64,000 nucleotides of DNA, from NCBI GenBank assembly GCA_040285855.1, contig JAUFOQ010000003.1, positions 1,798,001-1,862,000 of the forward strand. The letters run 5' to 3'. The translations under genes and the position numbers were made by a program. Below the pieces are notes generated by a model, which searched no databases, was not told where the DNA came from, and was given only the letters and a program-made list of their open reading frames with translations. Position 1 is the stretch's first letter. The number at the start of each line of letters is the position of its first letter. This document shows, piece by piece, positions 4,515-47,580 of the stretch. The stretch is from Eukaryota sp. GEM-RC1 (lineage: Eukaryota).

Positions 4515-5085
4515 CATGTACATCATCACATTGAAACAATTCCTTTCCGTTCATAAGGCTGTCAGAGAAACGTTTAGATTTTATGGCTATGTTACCTGAA
4601 GTGTTATATATTAGAGTGGTACTATTGGACTTCCTGGAATTATTTCTCAAGTTCCCACGGTGTTTCAATTACATTTATCAGAAGAAGGTTGATGATGAAT
4701 GTGCGTCTTCTTAATATATTCAACTTTTACACTTACTTTAATTGTGTTTTTCGTCATTTGATTAATCGTCCATACTTTTTATTCATCTACGTTCACTTAT
4801 TCATGATGGGGCACGTGATTCTTGTTATTCCCTGTTTAAAAGCACATGGATTTAACACTAAAGTAGAACCGGTTTGGACTCACCTTTCAGAAAATGAATT
4901 AGCAGATCAAAAGGGTCTTCATACTTCGTGGCTTAAATCGAGTCAGTCATTAAAGGATTTTACCACATTAGATGTTTGTAACAAAATTTGTGTTAGTAGA
5001 TCTTCTTGTAATCTGGTAACAGCTGCTGAAAAGCTTAAGCATTCCAAGTATGACTCACAAGTAGAAGAATTTAATAGAAAATAGA
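4515..5085 (+). mobile_element. RLE non-LTR retrotransposon fragment (family A)
   Basis: CLKAHGFNTKVEPVWTHLSENEL..DFTTLDVC..AAEKLKHSKY, a restriction-like endonuclease region of CRE/NeSL/R2-type elements. Confidence 0.7.
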
Positions 5086-14545: not shown

Positions 14546-15601
14546 CTAATTGAAAACATCTAACGCCTGGTGCACTGCTGGTGGAATTGCCTGGTCATAT
14601 GAAGCCATCATAGTATCAATTTTTTTTTGATCGATTGACGTCTCCCTCATAAGAAAATGGTCAACATGCCGTAGATACACAGATTCTTCATCTTTGAGAA
14701 ATGCGTTCAGCTCATAGCAATAATCCCACAGCAATTCCGTTCGATCCTCTGGTTTAGCAGCGTGTAACGTGTCTAAAGTGGTTTTAAGAGTATGAATACG
14801 TTCTTGATACAGTTTCAATGGACGAAACTCATGAGTGATACGTCCAAGAGCAACAGGAAAGGAATGAATACTGTAGGCAAACTTTAAGTAGAAGGAATGA
14901 ACATAGTTACTGAAGAACTCGAGCAATTGGCTGAACTCGAATGGGTTATCTTCATAAAATGACTCCGCAATATTCAGGACTTTATGGATAACTGACAAAC
15001 ACTGCATCATTCTGGACGACACGTAGGAGGTAGCAATTGGAACTGTGGGGGGAACCTTGGTGTAGGTGAGATCAATGTTGGGGTCAAAGTCAGGGCGATT
15101 GGCAAAGTCAGTGTAAACTTTTTCCACGAAAGCCTCTGTAGCACGAACCTTTGGTGTTATATAAGACATGATGCGTTTTTGCAACATTTTAAGATCAAAA
15201 TCACCTATGAACAGCATGAGAGAAGGAAAAACCATGACTTCTTCAGCTGATCCATGTAGACCACTTAATGCTAAGTATTCATGCACCAATCGAAGGAAAA
15301 CATTAGCGTTCTTCTTATACTCTCCACACATTGCAGCATAAATAGACTTCAGTTGAGAGTGTTGATCTTTAATAGTCAGGACTCTGTCAACCAGAGGCGA
15401 CAGTTCGACGACAAAATCTGAGAGAGCCTCTTCTTCGCAATCACAGTGAAAAGAGAGGCAATAGTGTCCGATAAAGTCAAGATAAGGTTGAAGATCAGCA
15501 TTATTCCGAGGATATGATCGTAATAGATGCTGAAAAACGTCCATGGCTTTGTATATGACCAAATGCTGTCGCTTAAGTTCATCTGCGAGATCCAGATTCA
15601 T
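14546..15601 (-). CDS. Hemerythrin-like (HHE cation-binding) domain protein, copy 1
   Basis: ELKRQH..FHCDCEEE..KDQH..LHGSAEEVMVFP plus a degenerate second repeat; start set by comparison with copy 2. Confidence 0.75.
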   Translation of the reverse strand: MNLDLADELKRQHLVIYKAMDVFQHLLRSYPRNNADLQPYLDFIGHYCLSFHCDCEEEALSDFVVELSPLVDRVLTIKDQHSQLKSIYAAMCGEYKKNANVFLRLVHEYLALSGLHGSAEEVMVFPSLMLFIGDFDLKMLQKRIMSYITPKVRATEAFVEKVYTDFANRPDFDPNIDLTYTKVPPTVPIATSYVSSRMMQCLSVIHKVLNIAESFYEDNPFEFSQLLEFFSNYVHSFYLKFAYSIHSFPVALGRITHEFRPLKLYQERIHTLKTTLDTLHAAKPEDRTELLWDYCYELNAFLKDEESVYLRHVDHFLMRETSIDQKKIDTMMASYDQAIPPAVHQALDVFN

Positions 15602-15692
15602 CAGTGATTGGGAGATCAAGTTTTCTATTTTTGTTTGGTCGAATATCAAACACAGGTGTTTTAGTTCAAAACTTTCTGAGGGAGGTTGTTGC

Positions 15693-16651
15693 CAGAGGCT
15701 GTCAAAATTGAATTGGACTTCCAATTATTGCCAAGAAATTATTGTAATAATTGATTGGTGCCACTTACAGAATTGCCAATTAATTGCCAATTAACAGAGT
15801 TCACAAGAACACGAATTACAAGACTCGTTTTATTTGTAACACAGAATAAATATTTTAATCAGATTAGTGAGCTGAAAATTGGTAAGCATATTTCTGTTTC
15901 CCTTTTGACGACTTGTTTTGCGGCCAAAATCAAAATCAATCACTCTTTGCGCTCAATCAATCCTGAACTTACTATTGATTTAGCCAGAAAATTTAACTCT
16001 TTGAGACCTAAGTTCTTAAGTGATCTTGTAGAGGTTAATGACTCGAAATTGCCTTATCACGCGTTTTCATCAGCTAATTTTGGCGGTGTGGGTTTTTCTC
16101 GAGCTTCATACTTAACCAAAAATGTGTTTATTGGTGGAATGAAGAATTTTCTATTTGAATCTAAATCCCGATACGGCTTTTTGTTTAATGAAAATCTCAT
16201 TCAGTCTACTCCTTGGTTAGTTTCGTTAGTCCCAGTTATTGACGATTTGGATTTGGACACTTGGAATAGCTGTCTTCCTTCTCATTTACCCAGTATTCCT
16301 GAAAAATCTACATTGTCTCCCCCCTTATGTGTGGTCAAACTTCAGAATAAGCTTTTGAAGGCAATTGAAAACCTGGATTTTGAAAATCGTTTTAGTATTA
16401 CTAAAATTAATAATCCTGTTTTTGCTGCTTTCTTAAATGACATTAAGAATTCAACTTGTTTGAACACTCAACAACCACGTCCTTTTGGTTTGCATCTGTC
16501 TGATGAGGCTTGGAAATTAAATATGCGATTGCGTTTAGGTTTGTTTATATAAATTGGTTAATTGGGTTCAAATAATTGCAATTATTGCAATTATTGATTG
16601 GTACGTTTTGTGATGACAAATTCATTGCCAATTCAATTTTGACAGCCCCTG
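15693..16651. mobile_element. hAT-type non-autonomous element carrying a retrotransposon fragment
   Basis: TIR CAG(A/G)GGCTGTCAAAATTGAATTGG; perfect 8-bp TSD GTTGTTGC; internal ORF 15755..16552 (GGVGF..WKLNMRLRLGL) homologous to 18414-19040. Confidence 0.88.
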
Positions 16652-21629: not shown

Positions 21630-21788
21630 ATTTTTCCCAGTTCCTTGAACCTCAAAACTCCACTAAATACTTGTCTATTTTTCAACGTTTAATGAAGTTT
21701 TAATAAACTTCTGTGTGGGTTGCTTTCACCTCATAATTTGACGGCTGGAATGAGAACTCATATTTGGTTAAGTCCATAGAATTGTACT

Positions 21789-23320
21789 TAGACCTGTGCA
21801 ATCGACTCAGATAGTCGACTAAGTCGACTCCGCTACATCAGTCGACTCATGTCATATATTACAGCAATTTGTGTATTTAGTGTGGATAAAGAATTAGTGT
21901 GGATTTTAATTAGTGTGGTCCACACTAATTCTAATTTTCTTGCTTTTTTATAGTGTTAATTTTGGACTTAATTAGTGTGGATTTTATTATTCTATCAATG
22001 ATGTGTGAAAATAAGACCTGAAGGCACCAATAGTAAACTGATAAACTCTTCTCCTATTCAACATTTTTTAACATGGTACTAGGCCTGGAAAACATGAATG
22101 CAAAAAGATTTATCTGCCCCCAACACCACCACTACTACAACCCGCAGATTCTTTTGCCATTTCAAAAATCAAGGCAAAATGATTAAAGAAATGGAACACT
22201 AAGAAAAGAGAATTGATAAACAACCGCAGTTCTTCTAGATCGGGAAGGGTTAGACATCCTGGAAAACAATTCTTTCTTGAATTAGCTGAAGAATGTATCA
22301 ATGAAGTCAATGCAGAAGTTGACTATAATGGTATTTCATATGCTCGTACAGCCATGGTTTGAGCTTGAACACAACTGGTCGCCTGATTAATTTAATAACG
22401 CAGTAAACGATTTGTTGTAATAGTGAATTAGAATTGTCACATTGGTAGTAAATAAAAAGAATATTGAAAGAACTTCTATAGATTTGTAGTGTTCCAAGAA
22501 TATACACAACACCAACTACAGTTATAATAACGCCGTTTTAAAACATATTTCAATCCACACTAAATCTTTTTTCAGAAAATTAGTGTGGTCCACACTATTT
22601 TTATTAAATTATAATTAGTGTGGATTATAATTAGTGTGGTCCACACTAATTCTAATTTCTACGAGCTGAAAAATGCAATGAAAATTAGTGTGGTCCACAC
22701 TAATTAAACCAAATGCTGTACATTGTAGTACCACTAATTCCAATTCCAATTCCATGTGGCGATGAACTTTCTCAATACTTCAGTGATCCACTGGCCGTCA
22801 TAAACCAATCCGGTTCTTTGGTGGCACCAAAGTAAAGGCCGCTATCCAATTCTCCGTAATTTGGTTGAAGAATTTTTGGCAATTCAGACGACCTCAGTAC
22901 CATGTAAGCGCCTCTCTTCTCAAAAAATAGGTTATATAGTTTCAAGCAAGCGTTGTCCATTGAGTGACGAAAATATTAGAGCATCTGCATGTTTGCAGTC
23001 ATGGAGCATCTTTCTTGGTGATGAATTTGGTTATAGCTACTTCAGTACTTATACACTTTATTTGTGATGATCTACTAATAGCTTTTCCTATAAAAATGTC
23101 CTGCATTTTGCCCGTTTTATAGACGAATGAATTTCAATGAGTGGGCTATAGTTACTGTCGTTACTCAATAGTCGACTCGAGTCGACTCAAAGCCGAGTCG
23201 AGTCGACTCAGATAAATAATTAGTCGAGTCGAGTCGACTACACGATTCGTAGAGCCGAGTCGAGTCGACTCAGATAAATTTCTAGTCGAGTCGAGTTGAG
23301 TCGAGTCGTGCACAGGTCTA
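21789..23320 (+). mobile_element. hAT deletion derivative with transposase dimerisation-domain remnant
   Basis: TIR TAGACCTGTGCA; near-TSD ATTGTACT/ATGTACT; GTCGACTC subterminal arrays; 22760-23010 reads ELSQY..PVLWW..YPIL..FLAIQTTSVPC..KRCPLSDENI..CLQSW. Confidence 0.88.
21862..22718. mobile_element. Tc1/mariner-type MITE nested in the hAT element
   Basis: Imperfect TIR CAGCA(A)TTTG..TTAGTGTGGA, TA on both sides, AATTAGTGTGGTCCACACTAATT palindromes at both ends. Confidence 0.75.
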
Positions 23321-28087: not shown

Positions 28088-28971
28088 TAGACCTGTGCAC
28101 GACTCGACTCGACTCAACTCGACTAGAAATTTATCTGAGTCGACTCGACTCGGCTCTACGAATCGTGTAGTCGACTCGACTCGACTAATTATTTATCTGA
28201 GTCGACTCGACTCGGCTTTGAGTCGACTCGAGTCGACTATTGAGTAGCGACAGTAACAATAGCCCAATCATTGAAATTCATTCGTCTAAATAAATGCAAA
28301 ATGCAGGATTTTTTTATAACAAGAAACAAGAAAAGCTATTAGTATACAGTCTATAAGTACTGAAGTAGCCTATAACGCAAATTCATCACCAAGAAAGATG
28401 CTCCATGACTGCAAACATGCAGATGCTCTAATATTTTCGTCACTCAAAGAACGAGAAAACTCATGGTGGGGTACGATTCTCCCGAAATAGCTTCAGTGAC
28501 AGCGAAGAACGGTTTAAGCAGTTCTAGGCCTTGATTGAGAGTAGATTTCTCATCTGGAGAAAGAGCTGAATTCTACAGGTCTTTGTTGGAGGTAAACACT
28601 CAAAGAGCAGAAACAAGAAACTGGTTTAACAGAAATCATTTGAGCACTACATGTAGTAACGTTGTTAGTATACTACACTTGATTTTTTTTAACCACAAAG
28701 ACGAAAGTCAATTGGTGTTGTTTCAGTATTCAATCTTGAACTATTTAATGGAAGATAATATATATAAACCACATGTGGGATAATTTGATGCAACGTAATA
28801 AATGACTTGAGTCGACTCGACTCGGCTCAGACATTGTTTAAGTCGACTCGACTCGACTTGGGAAAGAGATGAGTCGACTCGACTCAACTGCACTTTTTTA
28901 CGAGTCGACTCGACTCAACTGATGTAGCGGAGTCGACTTAGTCGACTATTTGAGTCGATTGCACAGGTCTA
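28088..28971 (-). mobile_element. hAT non-autonomous element (same family as 21789-23320, opposite orientation)
   Basis: TIR TAGACCTGTGCA; perfect 8-bp TSD TTCCCTCG; 28088-28446 is the reverse complement of ~22960-23320. Confidence 0.92.
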
Positions 28972-30501: not shown

Positions 30502-31557
30502 CTAATTGAAAACATCTAACGCCTGTTGCACTGCGGGTGGAATAGTCTGGTCATATGACGCCAGCATAGTATCAATTTGTTTTTGATCAATTGAAGTCTC
30601 CCTTATAAGAAAATGATCAACATGTCGTAGATACACAGATTCCTCGTCTTTCAGAAACGCGTTCAGCTCATAGCAATAATCCCATAGCAATTCCTCTCGG
30701 CCTTCTGGTTTGGCAGCCTGTAACGCGTCTAGAATGGTTTTAAGAGTCTGAATACGCTTTTGATACAGTTTCAATGGACGAAACTCGTGAGTGATACGTC
30801 CAAGATTTACAGGAAATGAATGTATACTGTACGCGAACTTCAAATAGAAGGAATGAACATAGTTACTGAAAAACTGGAGCAATTGGCTGAACTCAAAAGG
30901 TGTTTCATCATAAAATGACTCTGCAATATTCAGGACTTTATAGATCACCGCCGTACACTGCGTCATCCTGGACGAAACATAAGAGGGAACAATGGGAACT
31001 GTAGGGGGAACCTTGGTGTAGGTCAGATCAATGTTAGGGTCAAAGTCAGGGCGATTGGCAAAGTCAGTGTAGGCTTCTTCCACAAAAGCCTCTAAAGCAC
31101 GAACCTTTGGTGTTACATAAGACAGCATGCGTTTTTGCAACATTTCAAGATCAAAGTCTCCAATAAACACCATGAGAGAGGGAAAAACCATGGATTCTTC
31201 AGCTGATCCATGTAGACCACTTAATGCTACGTATTCATGAACCAATTCAAGGAAAACAGTATGGTTCTTCCGGTACTCTTCACACATAGAAGCGTGAAGC
31301 GACTTCAGTTTGGCGTGTTGATCCTTAATAGTCAGTACTCTGTCAACAAGAGGCGACAGTTCGACTACATAATCTGAGAGAGCCTCTTCTTCACAATCAC
31401 AGTGGAAAGAGAGGCAATAGTGACCGATAAAGTCAAGATAAGGTTGAAGGTCGGCACCATTCTGTGGATATGATCGTATTAGATGCTGAAAAACATCCAT
31501 GGCTTTGTATATGACCAAATGCTGTCGCTTAAGTTCATCTGCGAGATCCAGATTCAT
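30502..31557 (-). CDS. Hemerythrin-like (HHE) domain protein, copy 2
   Basis: Colinear close paralog of 14546..15601 with the same H/E motifs; upstream homology extends ~430 bp. Confidence 0.78.
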   Translation of the reverse strand: MNLDLADELKRQHLVIYKAMDVFQHLIRSYPQNGADLQPYLDFIGHYCLSFHCDCEEEALSDYVVELSPLVDRVLTIKDQHAKLKSLHASMCEEYRKNHTVFLELVHEYVALSGLHGSAEESMVFPSLMVFIGDFDLEMLQKRMLSYVTPKVRALEAFVEEAYTDFANRPDFDPNIDLTYTKVPPTVPIVPSYVSSRMTQCTAVIYKVLNIAESFYDETPFEFSQLLQFFSNYVHSFYLKFAYSIHSFPVNLGRITHEFRPLKLYQKRIQTLKTILDALQAAKPEGREELLWDYCYELNAFLKDEESVYLRHVDHFLIRETSIDQKQIDTMLASYDQTIPPAVQQALDVFN

Positions 31558-32015
31558 CAGTGATTGGGAGATCCAGTTTTCTATTTTTGTTTAGTCGAAG
31601 ATCAAAACTCGGTGTTTTAGTTCAAAATTGTCTTCTGAGCCACAATTGTTCTCTTCTCCCTTCTGAAATGAACTTGGAAGTCATAGACCCCATATTCGCT
31701 CCATCGTTCTAATGATAAATTACTCTGAATCGCAGTAGGCACACGTCTATAATTCTACAGTGTTTCTCTCAATTACTTCGTTAGTGGCCCTCATCTATAT
31801 GTATTTTTTATTACTTGTGTCATGTTAGAGGAATTTCAGTTCACTAAACAATTTTGAAGCGGTAGCCCTTTAACATCAACCCTGTTTCTCGTTTTCTCGG
31901 ATCTGAAGTGCGGATGAATGTGCTAGGGAGCGTCACGTTCAGTAATACATGTTAAGTAAATCAGAATTTTCTCTCAACATTCTAGGTGGATTGACGACAG
32001 TGACACAAAATGAAA

Positions 32016-32670
32016 TGCAAAAACAAACAAATAATACTAAGATTAAATCCAAACGACTTCATCACCACCCGGTAAAAGATTACGTTTTTCAACATTAACC
32101 TTCACACCAATCTTGTACAATTTCTCAATTTATTGAGAGAAATAGAAAGGCATATTCCGAGAAATGGACAACACTACACGGTTTTTCCATTCAGCCGTTC
32201 TAAACTTACGCTTCTTCTCTTCACACAGTTCATCGTAATCCTTGAAAAATTGTTCACCAGCAGGAATAATCGATCCAAAAAGAGAAACAGCAAAAGGTCG
32301 AAACACAAATTTGGAATATGAGTTTCGATTTAATTCCTCCACTTGAGAGACATACTTGGAGTGTTTGAGCTTGGCAGCAGCTGTTAACGGATTAAAAGAA
32401 GAATCTAATATACTAATCCTTCTAACACATGATTTGTTACAAACATGTACTGTAGAAAAATCCATTAATGATTGACTCGATTTAAGCCACGGAGTATGGA
32501 GATCCCCTCTTTTTTTATCAGTAAATTCATTTTCTGAAAGGTGATTCAAAACTGGTTCAACTTTAGAGTCAAAACCATCTGCTTTAAAGATGGATTAGCA
32601 AGAATCACGTACACCATCATGAAATACTGCACGTAGATGAATAAAATAACGACAATTAATTGACGAAAAA
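32016..32670 (-). mobile_element. RLE non-LTR retrotransposon 3' fragment (family A)
   Basis: HLSENEF..DFSTVHVC..AAAKLKHSKY..FVFRPFAVSLFGSI..EWKNRVVLSI; 3' end shared with the copy at 3050. Confidence 0.75.
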
Positions 32671-34719: not shown

Positions 34720-34963
34720 GACTCCACATCACTGTGGAAAACTTACCTAAATCCATGAAGCAATCTAATTGACATCATCCATGGTGTCGTCGTAATGTTT
34801 TTGTGGCAGCTCCAATTGGCTTTTTAAGAGCTCGTCACCGTTAAAAGATCCCCTAACGGACAATCAATACACATAGCACGTCCAGAAACGGTTGAAGTGC
34901 AAGTAAGTGCCAATCCTATCGACACTGTGATAATCTTGTGAAATTTCTTCCAGTTTTACTAGT

Positions 34964-38145: not shown

Positions 38146-39067
38146 AAAAGGAAAATTAACAAGTCAGACAACATTGGGTAAATTGACAGAACTCTTTGAG
38201 AGAGTGTAACAGCTCCATCGTCGTCAGAGTTGTTCTCGGTCTCTTCTGAGCCCTAAGGCTGACACGACAGGTGTTTGTATTCTTGGATATCTTGATATAG
38301 ATTGTCTTGTTGAGTAGCTCAACACAACAATTTAAGAAGTAATTTCAATAGATTAGCTTTTATTATGATATGCATTTTTGTACCCTCCATCAATACACTG
38401 TTGTATTTCAATAGATTATTTCACCCTGAACAAACAAAAATCAATAATGGCTGTATCTTCAACACAAAAATGTGTAATTACAATGATGCAAATAATTTTT
38501 GTTGTTTCACTGAGCTTTTCTTACATCACTCACTATCACTGATAGCCTCAACCTGCTCATTATTGACATTAAGTGGATTTGGTTCAACAATTCGGCGTAC
38601 TGTGTCCACACTCCACAAATGTTTGTTGTAATTGAGAAACAACTGTTTCTCTAATGATGCATTGAAAGACTGTGTCGACAAAGACCGATAGTTGGTCCAG
38701 CTTGACATCTACATTTATGACGAATCAGTAACTAATTACACATTTTTGTGTTGAAGATACAGCCATTATTGATTTTTGTTTGTTCAGGGTGAAATAATCT
38801 ATTGAAATACAACAGTGTATTGATGGAGGGTACAAAAATGCATATCATAATAAAAGCTAATCTATTGAAATTACTTCTTAAATTGTTGTGTTGAGCTACT
38901 CAACAAGACAATCTATATCACGATATCCAAGAATACAAACACCTGTCGTGTCAGCCTTAGGGCTCAGAAGAGACCGAGAACAACTCTGACGACGATGGAG
39001 CTGTTACACTCTCTCAAAGAGTTCTGTCAATTTACCCAATGTTGTCTGACTTGTTAATTTTCCTTTT
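38146..39067. repeat. Long inverted repeat (335-bp arms, 252-bp spacer)
   Basis: 38146-38480 is the reverse complement of 38733-39067 with no indel and one mismatch seen. Confidence 0.95.
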
Positions 39068-39314
39068 GTTACCACTAAGCTAATAGCGCTATTAGCTTAG
39101 TGGTAACAAAAGGTCTGCTGCTCTTCAAAGGTCGAAGGTTCGAGTCCGGGTGAGGTCAAACAAGTAATAGTATGTCCTAAAACATGGACCACACAGAGGT
39201 GAGCTATTTCCTGGAGGTACTGCTAAGCTGGTAGCGTAAGAAAGACCCGACGAAGGGCACCAGCAAACCTTTTGTTACCACTAAGCTAATAGCGCTATTA
39301 GCTTAGTGGTAACA
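39062..39314 (+). mobile_element. tRNA-derived (A-box/B-box) 206-bp unit with 33-bp TIRs and palindromic junctions
   Basis: Perfect palindromes 39062-39113 and 39273-39314; A box TAGCTTAGTGG 39093, B box GGTTCGAGTCC 39137. Confidence 0.65.
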
Positions 39315-39848: not shown

Positions 39849-39979
39849 TTTGGAAATTATTGAGAATGACTAGAAGAATTGATAGTTCGCAGATCACAGA
39901 AGTAGAACTCATATACCAGTAAGCTCTACTTCCATTCCACTTCATCTCCCTTCTCTCACTACATGAAAGAATGTTCTGT

Positions 39980-40278
39980 TGAACGTTTCCAGAACTCCCG
40001 AAGCTCTTTTCAACCCTGCCAAACCTGATTTATGATTGCTCTTAGCTATTATTTACCTGAACCTGCCATGATTGGTCTTGAATCTCCCGCTATTCATGAA
40101 CAAACCTACAAGTCTATCATGAATCGACAAACGTATGGAGAAGGAAATGATCAACCAAGCTCCTCCTGCTGTAAAGATTAAGATTGTTGCTCCCCCAGAA
40201 AGAAAGTACTCTGTATAGATTGGAGGTTCCATTTTGTCATCTTTGACCACCTATGAATCTATGTGGATTACTCGTGAA
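39980..40278 (+). pseudogene. ACT: Actin C-terminal pseudogene fragment
   Basis: [65 protein letters not shown]; internal deletion, W-to-stop, truncated. Confidence 0.88.
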
Positions 40279-41100
40279 CATGTTATACCCTCTATGTGTA
40301 TTGATTGTCCGTTAGGGGATTTTCCCTGTGTTCGGTAGTTCGACTCCGTTTTAAATGATAGTTCAGATAAATATGAGTTTGTGCTGGAATAAATCACCTA
40401 TATCTATAGTAAATCGCAACTCAAAGTGACATTCAAGTTACAATATTTACTACTTCGACAACTGCTCAATATCGATGAATTGATTTAGTTTCAGATATTG
40501 GGGTCTTGTAGTGTGTTCCTTGTTATAAAGATACTAGTATGTCATTGTGCTCATTTTCAACATCTTTCATAAATCATGTATATCTTATAGTTTTCAACAA
40601 ATGTTGTATCACCAAATGTTGTTGTTACAAATGTTGTCAGTTTCAGTATGTCAAGATGTCACTGTAGACAACATCTATAAATAGTGTGAATTTATATTTG
40701 AGTCTAATTGCTTGGAGAGATGTCTATGGATACTTGTGTCCTGAGATCTCTCTCCTTCTTCTTTTCATCAACCAAACACGATCACGTGTTTAAGGATATG
40801 CCAAGAGAACATATTTTCTCGAGGCGTTCCTTTGTTCTACCTTTGTTACATGGTTTGTTTACTCACTTTTCGTCACTCAAACACGATCACGTGTTTAAGG
40901 ATGTGCCAAGAGAACATATTTTCTCGAGGCGTTCCTTTTTCTCTCATGGATTCTCGAATTATTCTATGTTGTTTCTTCTTTTGTTGTTGTTAGGGAAAGT
41001 CTTGAGTTCGTCTCAGTCGTTGTTTTGTTTTTACGATCATAAAGTCAGCACTTGTATGGTTTTTCTACAATCAAGTCTCCAGTCATCACAATTTCTCCGT

Positions 41101-41142
41101 GATTTGACTATGGACGGAGACATAGAGTCAAACCCTGGCCCA
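41101..41142 (+). other. 2A (StopGo) ribosome-skipping peptide
   Basis: DLTMDGDIESNPG/P fits the D(V/I)ExNPGP consensus, preceded by FLR. Confidence 0.9.
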
Positions 41143-41600
41143 GAAATTGCTTTTGGTGGTATTAGTCCTCTGGGTGATGAAACATGGCTAGAATCTTCAC
41201 ATTTAAATTTTGGGCATCACTTGATAGCACAAAAGTACCCTTTGCTGCAGAGATTATAGGAGATTTCGACCCTATGGAGTTTGGCAGCGCTATACGAAAT
41301 CAAGATAATTTGGCTGATGTTTCTGTAACCATTAAATCTAACAATGTTGGTAAAGTGTTGGTAGTAGTGCCTATTAATGATGCTATAACTGCATTATTTC
41401 CTGGAAGTCATTGGGGACTTGCTATTTACGATCTTGCTTTGAGTCATTTGTATTTCGCAGATTCCCTTAATGGAAAAATGTTCTTAAATTCAACCAAAGA
41501 ACATGTAGCACGTGCTAGCAATCTTTTTATCCTCACAATCTAAGTGTACCACAACAAAACAATGACTATGATTGTGGAATTTTTGTTTTATATTGTGATT
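41143..41600 (+). pseudogene. Ulp1/SENP8-like C48 protease domain 1 (spread over several reading frames)
   Basis: ETWLESSHL, VVVPIND..GSHWGLAIYD..YFADSL and, in a shifted frame, VPQQNNDYDCGIFVLY. Confidence 0.75.
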
Positions 41601-42890
41601 GAAACCTTGTATAAAAGCTTCAATAACCAGCTTTTGAATCAAGTTGATTTGCAGCATAAACTTCCAATATTGGCGGAGAAAGTGCAATCACTGCAAGAAT
41701 TGATCAATAACAACGACCCAGAAACTGAGCCAAAACAATTAGAAGACGCAAAGAATGACTATCAAAATGCCGTCAATCAGTTGATAGTTATTGATTTGAA
41801 GTATAAACTTGCAATATTGGCGGAGAAAGTGCAATCACTGCAAGAATTAATCAGCAACAACGACCCAAAAACTCAGGTAAAGCATTTAGAAAAGGCACAG
41901 AATGACTATCAAAATGCCATCAATCAGTATTACACAGAATACAATCGGTTGTTAGGTTTAAGTCATTGTACCGCATTCACCACATGTCAATTCGATTTAT
42001 CTTATCAAACTTTTGATCCCACAGTATACAGGACTATGTTAAATAATGAAATACGGAAATACCTAGGGTTACCTACTGACGTTCATTCAACCCAATCTCA
42101 ACAACAAATGAATATATCTGTTGGTACTTCTGCGATATCCGAACCTTCAACACTTATGTCATCTCCTGATGAAATTCCAGATTCAAATCCCAATGCTCTG
42201 ACACAAAGTGAATTACAACAGGTTTCAGAGGCAATCCAATCTTTGTCACCTGATGGTTGGATTGTGGACGATTGTGTTAATTGGTACTCTCAACATTTGA
42301 TGGAGATATATGGAGTTGATTTAAACGTCTTTGTAACTCCTGGATCTGTTCAATCATTTTTAGTTCATGAAAATCAATCTCTTCACGAGTTTTTCATCAA
42401 CAAGATTCTTCAGGAAAATTCTAGATATCTGTTTCTTCCTATAAATGACGCATTGATTAACGAAAGTTCTGGTATACATTGGGGTTTGATTGTAATCGAT
42501 ACACATGATGAACTTTTCATCTTTCTCGATCCTCTTTATGATGTTGAAGATCACAGACAAGATGTTGGTAAAAATTTATATGAAATTAATTCTTTTTTGA
42601 ATCAAGTTATTTCGAAAGTAGATGAAACTCTTCATCAACTCAATTATCGACTCATTATTGTTCCAGTGATAGAGAAGCAAACACCAAATGATTGTGGAAT
42701 TTATGTTCTTGAGTATATGAGAGGACTTTTAGAACTTCTCACTTCACATGAATTATCAGATCAACCTCTTATTCAAGCTGCTGGTATATTGTTGCAAAAC
42801 TCTATCAATGCTCAAGAGAGTAGGCAAGTAATAAAATTGTATCTTCAATCTTTACAACCAACTATAGTTCCACCTACACTTCCTCAGTAA
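41544..42890 (+). CDS. Helical repeat region plus Ulp1/SENP8-like C48 protease domain 2
   Basis: DGWIVDDCVNWY, LFLPIND..SGIHWGLIV..FLDPL, KQTPNDCGIYVLEY (H-D-C triad); duplicated ~49-aa LAEKVQSLQELI repeat. Confidence 0.82.
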   Translation: MYHNKTMTMIVEFLFYIVIETLYKSFNNQLLNQVDLQHKLPILAEKVQSLQELINNNDPETEPKQLEDAKNDYQNAVNQLIVIDLKYKLAILAEKVQSLQELISNNDPKTQVKHLEKAQNDYQNAINQYYTEYNRLLGLSHCTAFTTCQFDLSYQTFDPTVYRTMLNNEIRKYLGLPTDVHSTQSQQQMNISVGTSAISEPSTLMSSPDEIPDSNPNALTQSELQQVSEAIQSLSPDGWIVDDCVNWYSQHLMEIYGVDLNVFVTPGSVQSFLVHENQSLHEFFINKILQENSRYLFLPINDALINESSGIHWGLIVIDTHDELFIFLDPLYDVEDHRQDVGKNLYEINSFLNQVISKVDETLHQLNYRLIIVPVIEKQTPNDCGIYVLEYMRGLLELLTSHELSDQPLIQAAGILLQNSINAQESRQVIKLYLQSLQPTIVPPTLPQ

Positions 42891-43261
42891 CAACATTGTA
42901 GATCGGACACTGGAAAGAAAAAATCTCCCAAAACTAATCAACCTGCTGGGAAAGAAATAAATCTTCTGAAACTTCTGAAAGTACTACACGTCTGTCATCT
43001 CGTCGTAAAACTCTAGAAGTAACTAATAAAAGTTCATCAAGTTATTCTTCAACATCTGACACATCCGTAAAAAACTCTAAAGCACGACGGCTAGAACGGA
43101 AACCAAAAAGTGTCATTCGTCAGTAATTCATCGTCCACAAGAACAAGTTTCTAAACGTCAACAGAGACTGTATAATCAATCTAGTGGTTGTACAAAATTC
43201 CCTAAAACTGACGAAGAATGTCAAAGCTCGCAAGTAGTTGAAGGTTCAACTGGTTCTTTGA

Positions 43262-46200
43262 ATGAATTTCCTGAAATTCCAGTTGTTAAAGGAAAAAAGG
43301 AAAAAGAATCAAGAATTCCATTTATTGACATTGCAACTGATACTGTTGTTGATGACTCCCCTTCCTACAGTTTTTATAATTGATATTGAAACAAGAAATA
43401 TCAATGAGAGAATTCCTTCAAGAGTGAACAAAGAATTGAATGAACATCGTAAAACAGAAAAAGAGTCTTTGAAACAGAGAAGATCTTTAATGAATGATTT
43501 TGAGAAAGAAGCTCACGACTTTGATTTTCTCTCAGAACAACAAATCATCATGATCTCTGTCATTATTGCAAAACTACAACCCGATGGTAAGTTACAATTT
43601 GACAACTCAATCGTTCTTTACACTGACTACAACTATAAAATCAAATTCAGTGAATCAGAAACACCAGCTTTTAAATTAGATCTTTTGGACTTCCCAAATG
43701 AAAACGAATAATTGGTTACATACGCTAATATTGTTAATCAATATAAACCAAATGCTTTTATTGGACATAACATTTTCAATTTTGATTTGCCCATAATTGA
43801 CAATAGAATGTGGGCTCTTGACCTTCCTCTTTTAACAAATCCAAATCCAATTCAGTTGCCTTTACATAGTAGATGGCTGGATATCATAAAAGATCACAAT
43901 GGTTTTACAGTTTTGGATACCTTTTTGTTTGCAAAGAAGTATATTGGTCTCAAGTATGGTTGTAGTCTAGCCAATTTATCTTGGAATTTACTTTCTGAAC
44001 CCAAATTGAAATTGGATAAAGACTTGGACCACTTACTCCCAGTTGATTGTTTAAGAAGTGATAAAAGAATGAAAACGCTAATCAACTACTGTCTTCATGA
44101 TTCAATTTTGGCGTTTAAATTGTTTATTTTATTTCAAAAAGACAAAATTGTTTTTCAATCATGGGCTTCTATTAAAACGTCAGTTGTTAGTGTGGTAAAA
44201 CATCAAGAAGTTCAAGATGCAATGCTTTTAGGATCTCAGTTCTACAATGCGTTAAGACAACAGACTACAATGTGTGTTAAAGAATATCTGTTGGCTCGCT
44301 ATCGTCTTGGACAAGATTTGTCTAAGTTTGATTACAAGTTATTTTATCATACAATGCTTTCAATTAGAAATCTTTCATCTAAAGTTCATAACTTTAAAAT
44401 TCCAAATAATTGTCCTATACGAACGATTGATACAGATCTTCGTGATTTTGTTGCTGGAGAAGGTATTTATACTGCCAATTCAAACTATCCTGGATATAAG
44501 CACTGTGTTACTGATACATTTGGCACATGTCATTTACCAGAACTTGATCTTGATCATATCAGCAGAGCTTTTGAATACACTACTCAGTATGAAATGTGGC
44601 CTGCGTTTGAACTAAATATTCGTCGCAATTATGAGTTGTACATTAAAAGATTTATCAATACAGTAATGGGTAAGAAAGAGTTTGAAAAGGGAATGAAAGA
44701 GAGTCGTAATTTAGTTTTAGGTCCAGAACTTGCAAGACTAACAGGACGTGAAGCTCAAAAATTCACTAGTTACTTCAGATGTCGATTAAAGATGTTGAAA
44801 GACCAGATTTTGTATCGACCTAGAGATGAAGCCTTACAGTATATTAATTCTTTTAACTCTGCCACTCACCCTGAAAATGTTAAGTTTATTGATGAAGTTT
44901 CTAAAGTTTTTAATGACGATTTCAGTATGTTAATATTTGAACAGATCAATTCCCTAATGGCTGATAAAATTCCACAATTACTTCAAAGATTTAACATCAT
45001 ATTTCCTACTTCAATCACTGCTAACGACAATGAAACTGTAGACGTTCATAATTTACTTTACACAGTTCAGGAGTATCCACTTCATTTTCTAAGAAATTCT
45101 CTTCAAATCTCAGATTACTTGGAATCCAAGGGTGCTAAGTTGTATAATGTAATTCCTCTAAGTTTAGAGAATACTCCTTGTTTTTTCCCAATAGATACCA
45201 GAACTCTTTGGGGACTGGCTAAGCACTGTTTTGGATATAAGAATAATGACAAGAAGATTGGTCCTTTACATTCAAAAGTGACTAATTACATGTCTGCTGG
45301 TCAGATCATCAACATGACCCATTCTCAACAACAAGATTACTGGAAAAGATGGTTTAACTATGATGACAGAAGTTTTCACAAAGCCAATTTTGAATTCAAC
45401 AACTATGCTGTAACTGATGGAATTTCGATTTGTTTTCAATTTGTGAGAAAGGATCTGAAAGGAATGAAATGTAAACCTGATTCAAGTAAAGCTTCAGTAA
45501 AAGTACAATATTTCAATGAATGTGATAGGTCTGATTTTATTTCTAAACAAATGGTTTATGTGGACATTGGAAAGAGAGATATGCTACAACTTGCATCTAA
45601 ATCAAATAGGGAAACTCAAAATCCTCTAAAAAAATACAACTTTTTACGATTGACATATGCTGAGTGGTCTAGAGTTTCAAGAAAGCACAAAAGAATCCAC
45701 CAGTACCTTGTTAGAAGGAGATCAGGTACTACTACCGTGAGAGCAGGTGATGATATTCCAATAACTGTGACAATGAAAATTGAGAAATGGAACACTTGGT
45801 TAAGTGAAGAACAGGATTCTAAAACTGTTAATTACACTAAATTTAGAAAGTTTATTCTGGCTAAATGTATTCACTACAATGCAACTAAAGACTTCTATGC
45901 TTTGCATATATGGAGGATTCACAAAATCCAAAATCATGTCCATAAGCAAAAGACAGAGTCTAAATTGGTTAACAGCATTGTAAAAACTTTTGGTAGCCGT
46001 GACAAAATCGTACTATGTATTGGTGATTTAGGCCAGAAGCCAATCACCAACTTAAAGCACAGTCCACCATCCAGAACTAAGACTTGGACTTCATTCTTTC
46101 AGAGAAATGGTTTTCTAACAGTGTTGAATGATGAGAGAAACACTTCGTCCAAGTGTCCAGAATGTCATGAAGATGTTTTTGAAACTTCTATTGAGGTTGT

Positions 46201-46444
46201 CAACCCAAAGCCAAAATCAAGAGAGAAGAGAGAATGGATTCACCCCCATGGCTTACTAGAGTGTAAGAGTGAACATTGTCTGGGAGAAGTCAAGAAGCGA
46301 TTGAAGGGGGATAAGATAGGGCATACAGTGCCCAGTCAAATGTATTGGAATCGCAACAAGATGGCTTGCTTGAACATGATGAACATGTTCGAGCATTGGA
46401 TGAATGGTAGTGATGAGAGAGTAGAGTATCTGAGTAGAAATTAG
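43262..46444 (+). CDS. PolB-type DEDDy 3'-5' exonuclease fused to Fanzor1-like (TnpB-derived) RuvC nuclease; one in-frame TAA at 43709
   Basis: Exo motifs IIDIET, IGHNIFNFDLP, YCLHD; Fanzor motifs LYNVIPL..PIDT, VTDGIS, VYVDIGKRD, LCIGDLG, NDERNTSSKCPEC..CKSEHC, WNRNKMACLNM. Confidence 0.88.
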
Positions 46445-46520
46445 TTTTATTTTTGTTAGCTGGCCGGTGAAACCCGGCCATATTTGGTTAAGTCCATTGT
46501 TATTTGTCATACCCTCATGA
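46445..46520 (+). ncRNA. Candidate Fanzor omegaRNA scaffold / right end
   Basis: GC-rich hairpin TGGCCGG-TGAAAC-CCGGCCA (46461-46480) 16 nt after the Fanzor stop in otherwise AT-rich DNA; position matches known Fanzor/TnpB loci; extent unknown. Confidence 0.5.
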
Positions 46521-47580
46521 ACATTGTTCGAAAACACACATGTGATTCAAAAAAAGTGACGTGTGGACACGGTGTCACTGAAATGGTGTGAATTGACCAC
46601 TTCAATCTTTTCCAGAAATTTAGAATTATTAGAACGTTTACTTTTCTTTTATCTAACGCTTTGTTATCTCTTGGTAGACCGATTGAGAATACGGTAGGTG
46701 AAAATTTCCAAATAGGCAATCTGGACTTTGAGGATATTGATCATTAGATGTAGGTACAATGTAGTATCGTTGTCAATAAACACCAGCTTCATAGAAAACA
46801 TGTACTACTACTAAGTACTGTAGTAGTCTGTATGTTGTTTATAAAATTTTGTTGATCAAAAATATGTCTTTTCAAGATTTACAGTTCTGCTTTCATTTCA
46901 AACTGACAATGTCTCTAGATTCAATCCAGATATTGAGAAATAAGATAACGAATTAAATTACCGCCATCTGCAAGAAATTATATTCATGAGTGTTGATCAA
47001 TAAAGATCGTTTTATCAGTAATGAAGTTTTACAGGTCGTAGTGGAAGAGTAAATTTGTTTTTCCACTCAAACCAATGTATAGATATGATGATTTCATTTT
47101 GTCCAAGTTGTTTGGTTAAAAATACTTTTCAGAATTGAGTAGTTCGTTTCAAAGTTTGTTTTAATGGATTGTATTTATAATTAATAATTATGTTGTGTGT
47201 TGGTCTCAGCATATAAATCTGCTTTTTAACAGCCAGAAGTTCGTGAAAAGTAACGACAAAGGTAGAGTTCATGTTTTCTGTTTAAGTCAATCATTGTCCA
47301 AGAGTATGGTGTCAATCTTTAACAAAATATCTCTAGATACTGAAAAATTCTTGAATCACTAAATGGTGTACACGTGTCAAGGATGACGTCATCAAGACAT
47401 AGTGTGGAGTAGTTTAAAACTAAAAGGTATATTGTTCTTACAATCTGATGAAGAAATAATTTGATAAACTATGAAAAAACTGAACTTTATGGAGCGCTTG
47501 AACAACTGCTCTTGAACAGAAAGATATTAAATAAATCAAAAATCTCAGCAAAGTCGACTAATATTAAAAATCAACTCCAC

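Follow-up and report, generated by a model that had tools for sequence, protein, structure and literature searches.

Fanzor1 omegaRNAs and the D-E-N catalytic triad have already been described (PMC10432273, PMC11423790), and the first stem-loop (SL1) has 7 bp in all three Fanzor1 RNAs of solved structure (PMC11423790). The RNA of SpuFz1, from the Spu-1 elements of Spizellomyces punctatus (PMC10432273; PDB 8gkh), starts just past the stop codon; its 7-bp SL1 bears a 6-nt loop and is directly preceded by a C (C7), which is contacted, while C6, two bases before the stem, pairs with G20, the last base of the loop. A 6-nt linker then leads to a stem that opens with UGG, the scaffold is 75 nt long, and the element is bounded by 30-nt inverted repeats (PMC10432273). 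The smallest scaffold known is that of PpFz1 from Parasitella parasitica, which consists, in about 55 nt, of SL1, a 7-nt linker and a 4-bp second stem (PMC11423790). GtFz1 from Guillardia theta (PMC11423790; PDB 9cer) is active with a D-E-N triad and uses a 150-nt RNA with four stems, whose SL1 has a 7-nt loop; neither inverted repeats nor a transposase are reported for it. The elements CRe-1, -2 and -3 of Chlamydomonas and MCi-2 of Mucor (PMC3627910) have no standard terminal repeats, variable 5' parts, target duplications of 7–19 bp or 11–12 bp and extra foreign bases inside the 5' duplication; CRe has Helitron2 ends, and an exonuclease, Ulp1 or 2A module is not part of the available description of these elements.

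The locus compared here with these systems lies in a stretch of 64,000 nucleotides of Eukaryota sp. GEM-RC1, which was analysed as a whole (the window; all coordinates are window positions on the + strand). An earlier note, based on the letters of the DNA, had proposed a candidate omegaRNA downstream of the stop codon of a Fanzor gene. We regard the candidate RNA as something to be expected in a system of this known kind, here in an uncommon variant.

The gene upstream of the candidate RNA is indeed a Fanzor, and more precisely a Fanzor1 according to its structure-database matches. It is an open frame of 910 codons (43712–46444), which encodes the second half of an exonuclease domain and then the Fanzor1 part. 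SpuFz1 (the best match) and PpFz1 lead the matches in the PDB, and a family profile adds GtFz1, which is more distant in sequence (E-values of 1.8e-26 for SpuFz1 versus 5.5e-8 for GtFz1). The profile matches to the three Fanzor1 structures span the region from WED to RuvC-III, and the front part of the profile matches the exonuclease domains of DNA polymerase delta and herpesvirus polymerases. Two structure predictions gave pLDDT values of 30.9 and 29.2, too low to be used. Alignment with SpuFz1 and PpFz1 gives the catalytic triad as D618 (at 45563), E808 (at 46133) and N882 (at 46355). The glutamate is of the relocated type, before a C4 zinc finger (CPEC and CxxxxC, cysteines at 46154 and 46262), and the WED domain carries the TDG motif described in PMC10711439 (T568, at 45413). 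At the sequence level, these features establish the gene as a Fanzor1 with a D-E-N triad.

Unlike SpuFz1, the window family has an Asn as third catalytic residue. A nuclease-dead (TldR-like) reading of this Asn is ruled out, because GtFz1 is active with the same residue; SpuFz1 even gains activity upon the D606N substitution (PMC11423790). Asn is likewise found at RuvC-III in the unrelated Fanzor1 proteins P0077, P0091 and P0139. A reassignment of the stop codon, by which the frame would run through the downstream hairpin, is also ruled out: with the standard code, long frames of the host stay open, and the relatives end at the same place.

The three stems that the earlier note had listed past the stop all exist. 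The first, at 46461–46480, starts 16 nt past the Fanzor1 stop and is a perfect 7-bp helix with six G–C pairs, closed by the loop UGAAAC. Among 2782 20-nt segments sampled from the window, 1 folds as well as this hairpin (−12.9 kcal/mol), GC-rich 7-bp stems number two in all on the + strand of the window, this one included, and a comparable stem appears in 3 of 4000 dinucleotide shuffles of 46445–46610. Taken as a whole, these 166 nt are not significantly structured (z −1.58, 16 of 200 shuffles). The two weaker stems, at 46556–46578 (−6.0; 41 of 2782 segments as good) and 46584–46599 (−3.1; 54 of 2782), form no local hairpins when the whole region is folded, their bases pairing at longer range. 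Both are unremarkable and probably outside the element. Their proposed role as parts of the RNA is not supported; with the boundary that we favour, 46556–46599 is flanking DNA.

Since its size, shape and position match those of Fanzor SL1, the hairpin at 46461–46480 likely starts the guide RNA, and it is very probably the SL1 of the Fanzor1 omegaRNA; the idea that the scaffold starts near the end of the open frame is supported by the same geometry and position. The predicted 5' leader (46457–46460) is based on the sequence, on the SpuFz1 contacts and on the published RNAs. C46460 corresponds to the C that directly precedes the stem in the SpuFz1 and PpFz1 RNAs, and G46459 is complementary to C46473, the last base of the loop, so that the locus resembles SpuFz1 in the predicted start of its RNA just past the stop, in its 7-bp stem and 6-nt loop, in the C at −1, in the complementarity of base −2 to the last loop base and in the UGG that opens the next stem. 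It differs from SpuFz1 in that the leader–loop pair is G–C instead of C–G. Read by eye, the SL1 loop of GtFz1 also ends with GAAAC and its stem contains CCGG, as in the window hairpin. We also observed a 12-bp hairpin at 46367–46395 (−16.0 kcal/mol; 0 of 2782 sampled segments are as stable), which lies within the last 26 Fanzor codons, 60 nt upstream of the SL1 hairpin; it may be a product of repeated Asn-Met codons or a mark of omegaRNA 5' processing.

When the tables of published RNAs are read by eye, the pattern of 7 bp, a 6-nt loop with U first and a C–G leader–loop pair is shared by five RNAs of S. punctatus (two of which have a bulged base within the stem), two of P. parasitica and that of Dishui Lake virus; the rows of Torulaspora and Batrachochytrium show no clear fit. 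A viral test set comprised 80 Fanzor1 loci, of which the stop was located in 76 and 54 distinct right ends were kept. A descriptor of SL1 (a stem of 7 bp, a loop of 6 nt and a last loop base that pairs with base −2) is present in 39 of these 54 right ends, compared with 41 of 212 among the control stretches, and its viral matches sit 103–127 nt before the end of the element. In 29 viral rows, which had been chosen for the motif, compensatory changes occur at all seven stem pairs. The SL1 of giant-virus right ends (L003–L077), which covaries strongly and lies about 103–127 nt before the end, combines a UCA leader, 7 bp and a loop of the UNNNCG type, and is often within the open frame. Once U as first loop base and C at −1 are added, the descriptor gives three matches in the 128 kb of both window strands, one of which is the hairpin 16 nt past the Fanzor1 stop; when C at −1 is not imposed, 18 matches are obtained in both strands. 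Near the end of the open frame, there is no second SL1-like candidate.

The giant-virus Fanzor1 loci (L001–L160) share the SL1 geometry of the window and a similar distance from the RuvC-III codon to the start of the stem (106 nt in the window, 92–104 nt in 38 of 39 viral loci). They differ in their invariant UCA leader, in a linker of 9–15 nt, in a shared terminal repeat ending with TA and in their D-E-D triad: no viral locus of the Asn type was found, and in a second set of 80 loci Asp is present in 76 of the 76 scored. Position −3 is A in the window and U in all 29 selected viral rows, partly by construction, and the leader–loop pair is C–G in 39 of 39 viral matches versus G–C in the window hairpin. 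This swapped pair (G46459/C46473) may have covaried truly in a lineage that has diverged, or its two bases may be complementary by chance. If true, it would be a natural covariation of a SpuFz1 contact beside the active site, in a family that carries Asn at that active site.

A search with a covariance model speaks against the assignment as SL1. Model R1, built from the selected viral SL1 rows and representing one narrow viral clade, does not report the window hairpin on the + strand, even in a search of 600 nt. A search of Rfam returned no meaningful match, which is uninformative since five viral Fanzor1 loci gave none either.

The right end of the element is outlined by two kinds of junction signals, which are unrelated to each other and coincide at 46497/46498. 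The stretch 46479–46497 (19 nt) is identical to 21759–21777, w­ith no significant flanking homology; the second site belongs to the 3' flank of a gene with leucine-rich repeats, and a MITE starts 11 nt after it. A match of at least 16 nt is reached in 0 of 300 shuffles, but 92 of 385 real 166-nt segments of the window have a match of at least 19 nt elsewhere, because the window is rich in repeats. Among the 95 maximal exact matches in the window, 19 are isolated (at least 19 nt, with dissimilar ungapped flanks), and only two of these 19 are without longer gapped homology: 46479–46497 and 40292–40323. Each lies directly inside one of two 12-bp direct repeats that look like a target duplication. 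The left copy (40281–40292) is where an actin fragment breaks off, and the right copy (46505–46516) is identical to it at 11 of 12 positions; the intervening bases 46498–46503 exactly copy the first six bases of the left repeat, as a 6-nt stutter. A comparable 12-mer is found in 22 of 1764 control windows, and 47 of 1245 score equally by local alignment, figures that overstate the case since the repeat was picked out by eye. The stretch 40292–40323 is a 32-nt inverted copy of 34845–34876, which is likely a host exon, and is itself likely filler at the left junction.

As far as these junction signals can tell, the inserted DNA would extend from about 40293 to 46497, with a duplicated target, and we consider a right junction at 46497 to be probable; 46498–46516 is then predicted to be the start of the flank and of the guide. 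The earlier note had placed the boundary between scaffold and guide near 46497–46516 or further downstream. The nearer position is better supported, the 19-nt match ending at 46497 and the duplication-like repeat starting at 46498. No terminal inverted repeat was found between the left region and the right end, in contrast with Spu-1 and like what is described for GtFz1; the absence of standard terminal repeats, the apparent target duplication, the foreign bases at the 5' duplication and the variable 5' part also recall CRe and MCi-2, the Helitron2 ends of CRe not being found here. Scans of metagenome contigs, viral contigs and phages gave no sister loci, and no sister-copy sequence came from an antisense-frame search across the 3' end or from a comparison of translated fetched proteins with the 3' flank.

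Several other interpretations of the flanks were rejected. A decayed whole copy at 21759 finds no support in anchored alignments of the flanks, which lack significance (237 and 251 of 2000 shuffles), nor is this the empty site of the window insertion, the DNA upstream of 21759 being unlike the left flank of the element. Resumption of the actin sequence past the right repeat is, by eye, unconvincing. The decayed actin fragment itself covers 39960–40281 and stops at the left repeat. The MITE-like element next to 21759 (21789–23320) has terminal repeats and a degenerate 7–8-bp target duplication, and related ends are seen at 28088 and 28971.

If the right end is at 46497, the scaffold is about 40 nt long or its tail was captured. 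The reading that we favour, with a probability of a little less than one half (about 0.47), combines an SL1 at 46461–46480, an element end at about 46497 and a scaffold of some 40 bases, behind which the flank supplies the guide. The RNA would then comprise the leader, SL1, a 4-nt linker (UAUU) and a 3-bp stem (UGG/CCA, 46485–46496; −1.1 kcal/mol). The closest model for such an RNA is PpFz1, but about 40 nt is below every natural scaffold that has been published (about 55 nt in PpFz1, 75 nt in SpuFz1), and the linker of 4 nt is shorter than in the fungal RNAs (6–7 nt) and in 38 of 39 viral loci (9–15 nt). If 46481–46497 is native, then 21759–21777 is a stray terminal fragment. As a matter of fact, 46479–46497 may either be the native last bases of the element or DNA captured at the right junction, and the symmetry with the left end may speak for a capture of host DNA rather than for scaffold.

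According to this second possibility, which we hold to be rather unlikely, SL1 is indeed the hairpin, but it is also where the native element ends, and 46479/46483–46497 is host DNA copied from 21759–21777. The scaffold of this copy would then be truncated and dead, or that of the family would be little more than SL1, the 15–17 captured nucleotides guiding to 21763–21777. The 19-nt match starts right where the stem ends, a similar orphan copy, of a likely host exon 5.4 kb distant, is present at the left junction, and the donors of both tails are within 25 kb, in cis. The match also consists of CATA plus 15 nt, which is the TAM and guide length of SpuFz1. Xu et al. consider that the region past SL1 may be unconstrained (PMC11423790), and the last stem of Fanzor1 RNAs incorporates bases of the target site (PMC10711439). 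However, none of the published Fanzor1 RNAs compared is without a second stem, the site at 21759 is not the empty site of the element, and a self-target with a perfect match should be cut. An unlikely reading, and the main rival to a right end at 46497, is that of a much longer scaffold, in which SL1 and the 4-nt linker are followed by a 7-bp closing stem (46485–46491/46593–46599) around an 85-nt hairpin, the guide starting at about 46600. This is the centroid structure of 46454–46600 (z −1.92, 10 of 200 shuffles), it equals the short model in energy (−42.4 versus −42.6), folding is better for the sense strand (−27.0) than for the antisense strand (−18.9), and structure and GC content drop past 46600 (z +0.42). 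Its length is compatible with that of the viral scaffolds from SL1 to the end (103–127 nt), and the RNA of GtFz1 reaches 150 nt (PMC11423790). The long irregular hairpin that holds the weaker stems (46499–46599) has z values of −1.0 to −1.9, but its downstream (inner) part, taken by itself, lacks significance (z −1.03), 7-bp matches that include one G–U pair are not rare within 120 nt (we estimate the chance at 0.1–0.3), and both the 19-nt match and the 12-bp repeat would have to be coincidences inside the scaffold.

Most improbable is that the hairpin is not part of an omegaRNA but an end signal of the DNA or of the transcript, for instance a 3' palindrome of the Helitron type or a hairpin that resembles a terminator. 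Helitrons have 3' hairpins and some carry Fanzor1 (PMC3627910). A T-rich run follows the stem 46461–46480, and the hairpin is missed by model R1. In Helitron1, the 3' hairpin is followed by CTRR; here there is none, 46481–46500 containing no CT dinucleotide. No asymmetric inverted repeat of the Helitron2 type to the left region was found, nor any Rep/Pif1 domain in the neighbouring frames or in the 20 family proteins scanned, and the geometry and position of the hairpin, the sole SL1-like candidate near the end of the frame, fit SL1.

On the favoured reading of a short scaffold, and by analogy with SpuFz1, PpFz1 and GtFz1, the RNA would be trimmed from a transcript that continues past the end of the open frame, down to the leader, SL1, the linker, the 3-bp stem and about 15 nt of flank. 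SL1 would dock on the RuvC/TNB surface, with G46459 pairing with the loop base C46473, and the complex would cut the empty allele of the insertion site, whose repair would copy the element back, a homing mode reviewed in PMC13565253. It may be, more tentatively, that the fused 3'–5' exonuclease trims the cut ends, that insertion by break repair leaves the filler pieces and the duplication of about 12 bp, and that 2A skipping frees the nuclease from the polyprotein. In the window copy, the exonuclease half is interrupted, and therefore a downstream start or the protein of another copy would be needed. A bolder and very unlikely scheme is that the element spreads without a transposase of its own, with the smallest known scaffold, little more than SL1: the cut would be trimmed by the exonuclease and repaired by copying of the element, and each new insertion could capture, behind the hairpin, nearby host DNA of guide length (here CATA and 15 further bases, from a site 25 kb distant), which would reprogram the nuclease in a manner similar to spacer acquisition.

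The Fanzor1 gene belongs to a family of composite proteins. The PolB-type 3'–5' exonuclease domain (43262–44110; Exo I Asp at 43382, with Exo II and Exo III motifs) is split in the window copy by an in-frame stop (43709–43711), and the part upstream is frameshifted. Many sister records are fragments likewise, which may result from decay or from assembly errors; intact relatives (P0013, P0005 and P0197 among them) have about 1200 aa with the exonuclease domain, versus 638 aa for SpuFz1. A frame for a Ulp1-family (C48) protease (41544–42890; Pfam PF02902, E 7e-9) precedes the exonuclease-Fanzor, as in the relatives P0197, P0016 and P0054. Further upstream is the motif D-I-E-x-N-P-G-P (41101–41142), which we take to be a 2A-like ribosome-skipping motif. 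It is present in 17 of the 92 family proteins, i.e. those assigned to the clade by id. Among these 92, Asn is found in 36 of the 37 that keep the RuvC-III motif, which makes it a family trait; the exonuclease motif and RuvC-III occur in one chain in 11 proteins, and the Exo II motif in 31. Pfam confirmed PF03104 in 9 of 10 and again 9 of 10 family proteins scanned.

At least 18 named Eukaryota sp. GEM-RC1 records are 87–97% identical to the window protein, and relatives with 29–59% identity come from the assemblies TZLM1-RC and TZLM3-RCL; this is a multi-copy family, in keeping with a mobile element. Loci of its copies are marked by, among others, the NCBI proteins KAL0246508.1, KAL0244593.1, KAL0226007.1, KAL0220299.1 and KAL0227631.1. 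When 1.84 billion representatives were searched with a profile, 2123 matches were obtained; among the matches listed, 19 of the 20 representatives looked up are from the three assemblies and the remaining one is an ordinary unnamed Fanzor. The ESM Atlas returned only generic viral Fanzor-like clusters at 0.89, which we consider as a lead. Pfam detected no transposase domain in the neighbouring frames or in the family proteins scanned, and neither a transposase nor a reverse transcriptase was seen in the window and the fetched proteins. The window contains decayed repeated frames without Pfam match (15755–16552, 4578–5084 and 32130–32594), which presumably resemble the ends of CRE-type non-LTR retrotransposons and might supply reverse transcriptase in trans. 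In one family member, P0194 (2027 aa), the exonuclease-Fanzor is preceded by a fused DEAD/DEAH helicase, tentatively a captured host gene or cargo.

That a Fanzor gene is followed by an omegaRNA is to be expected, the setting found here less so. The literature that we searched mentions no natural exonuclease-Fanzor fusion, although members could be listed in the supplementary ortholog tables of Saito, Jiang and Yoon; it likewise contains no Fanzor work with Ulp1 or 2A, or on metamonads, and no title on a TnpB with a DEDD exonuclease. The word "exonuclease" is absent from the main text of PMC10432273, PMC10530073, PMC10711439 and PMC13565253, and the genome preprint on the GEM-RC1 and TZLM assemblies contains neither "fanzor" nor "tnpb". 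In other settings, DnaQ-like exonucleases occur in the polyproteins of LTR retrotransposons (PMC6338049), DEDDh nucleases are mentioned in P and piggyBac elements (PMC3627910), and the pairing of a Fanzor with an exonuclease is one that engineers make deliberately (PMC13434818). The natural fusion of Fanzor1 with a 3'–5' exonuclease occurs in many subfamilies of three related protist assemblies, with no transposase seen. How Fanzors that lack terminal repeats spread can be tested directly in this family, and the genomes required are public. The scaffold, if it really is about 40 nt long, would be below the smallest natural Fanzor1 scaffold that we found reported, which is relevant to compact editors.

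Last, we note other features of the window. The genes 14546–15724 and 30502–31590 are 89% identical and have a weak hemerythrin match. A perfect 335-nt inverted repeat (38146–38480/38733–39067) belongs to a feature that spans 38146–39314, where it is followed by two copies of a perfect palindrome of 42–52 nt around a stretch that resembles a tRNA T arm, with no Rfam or tRNA call.
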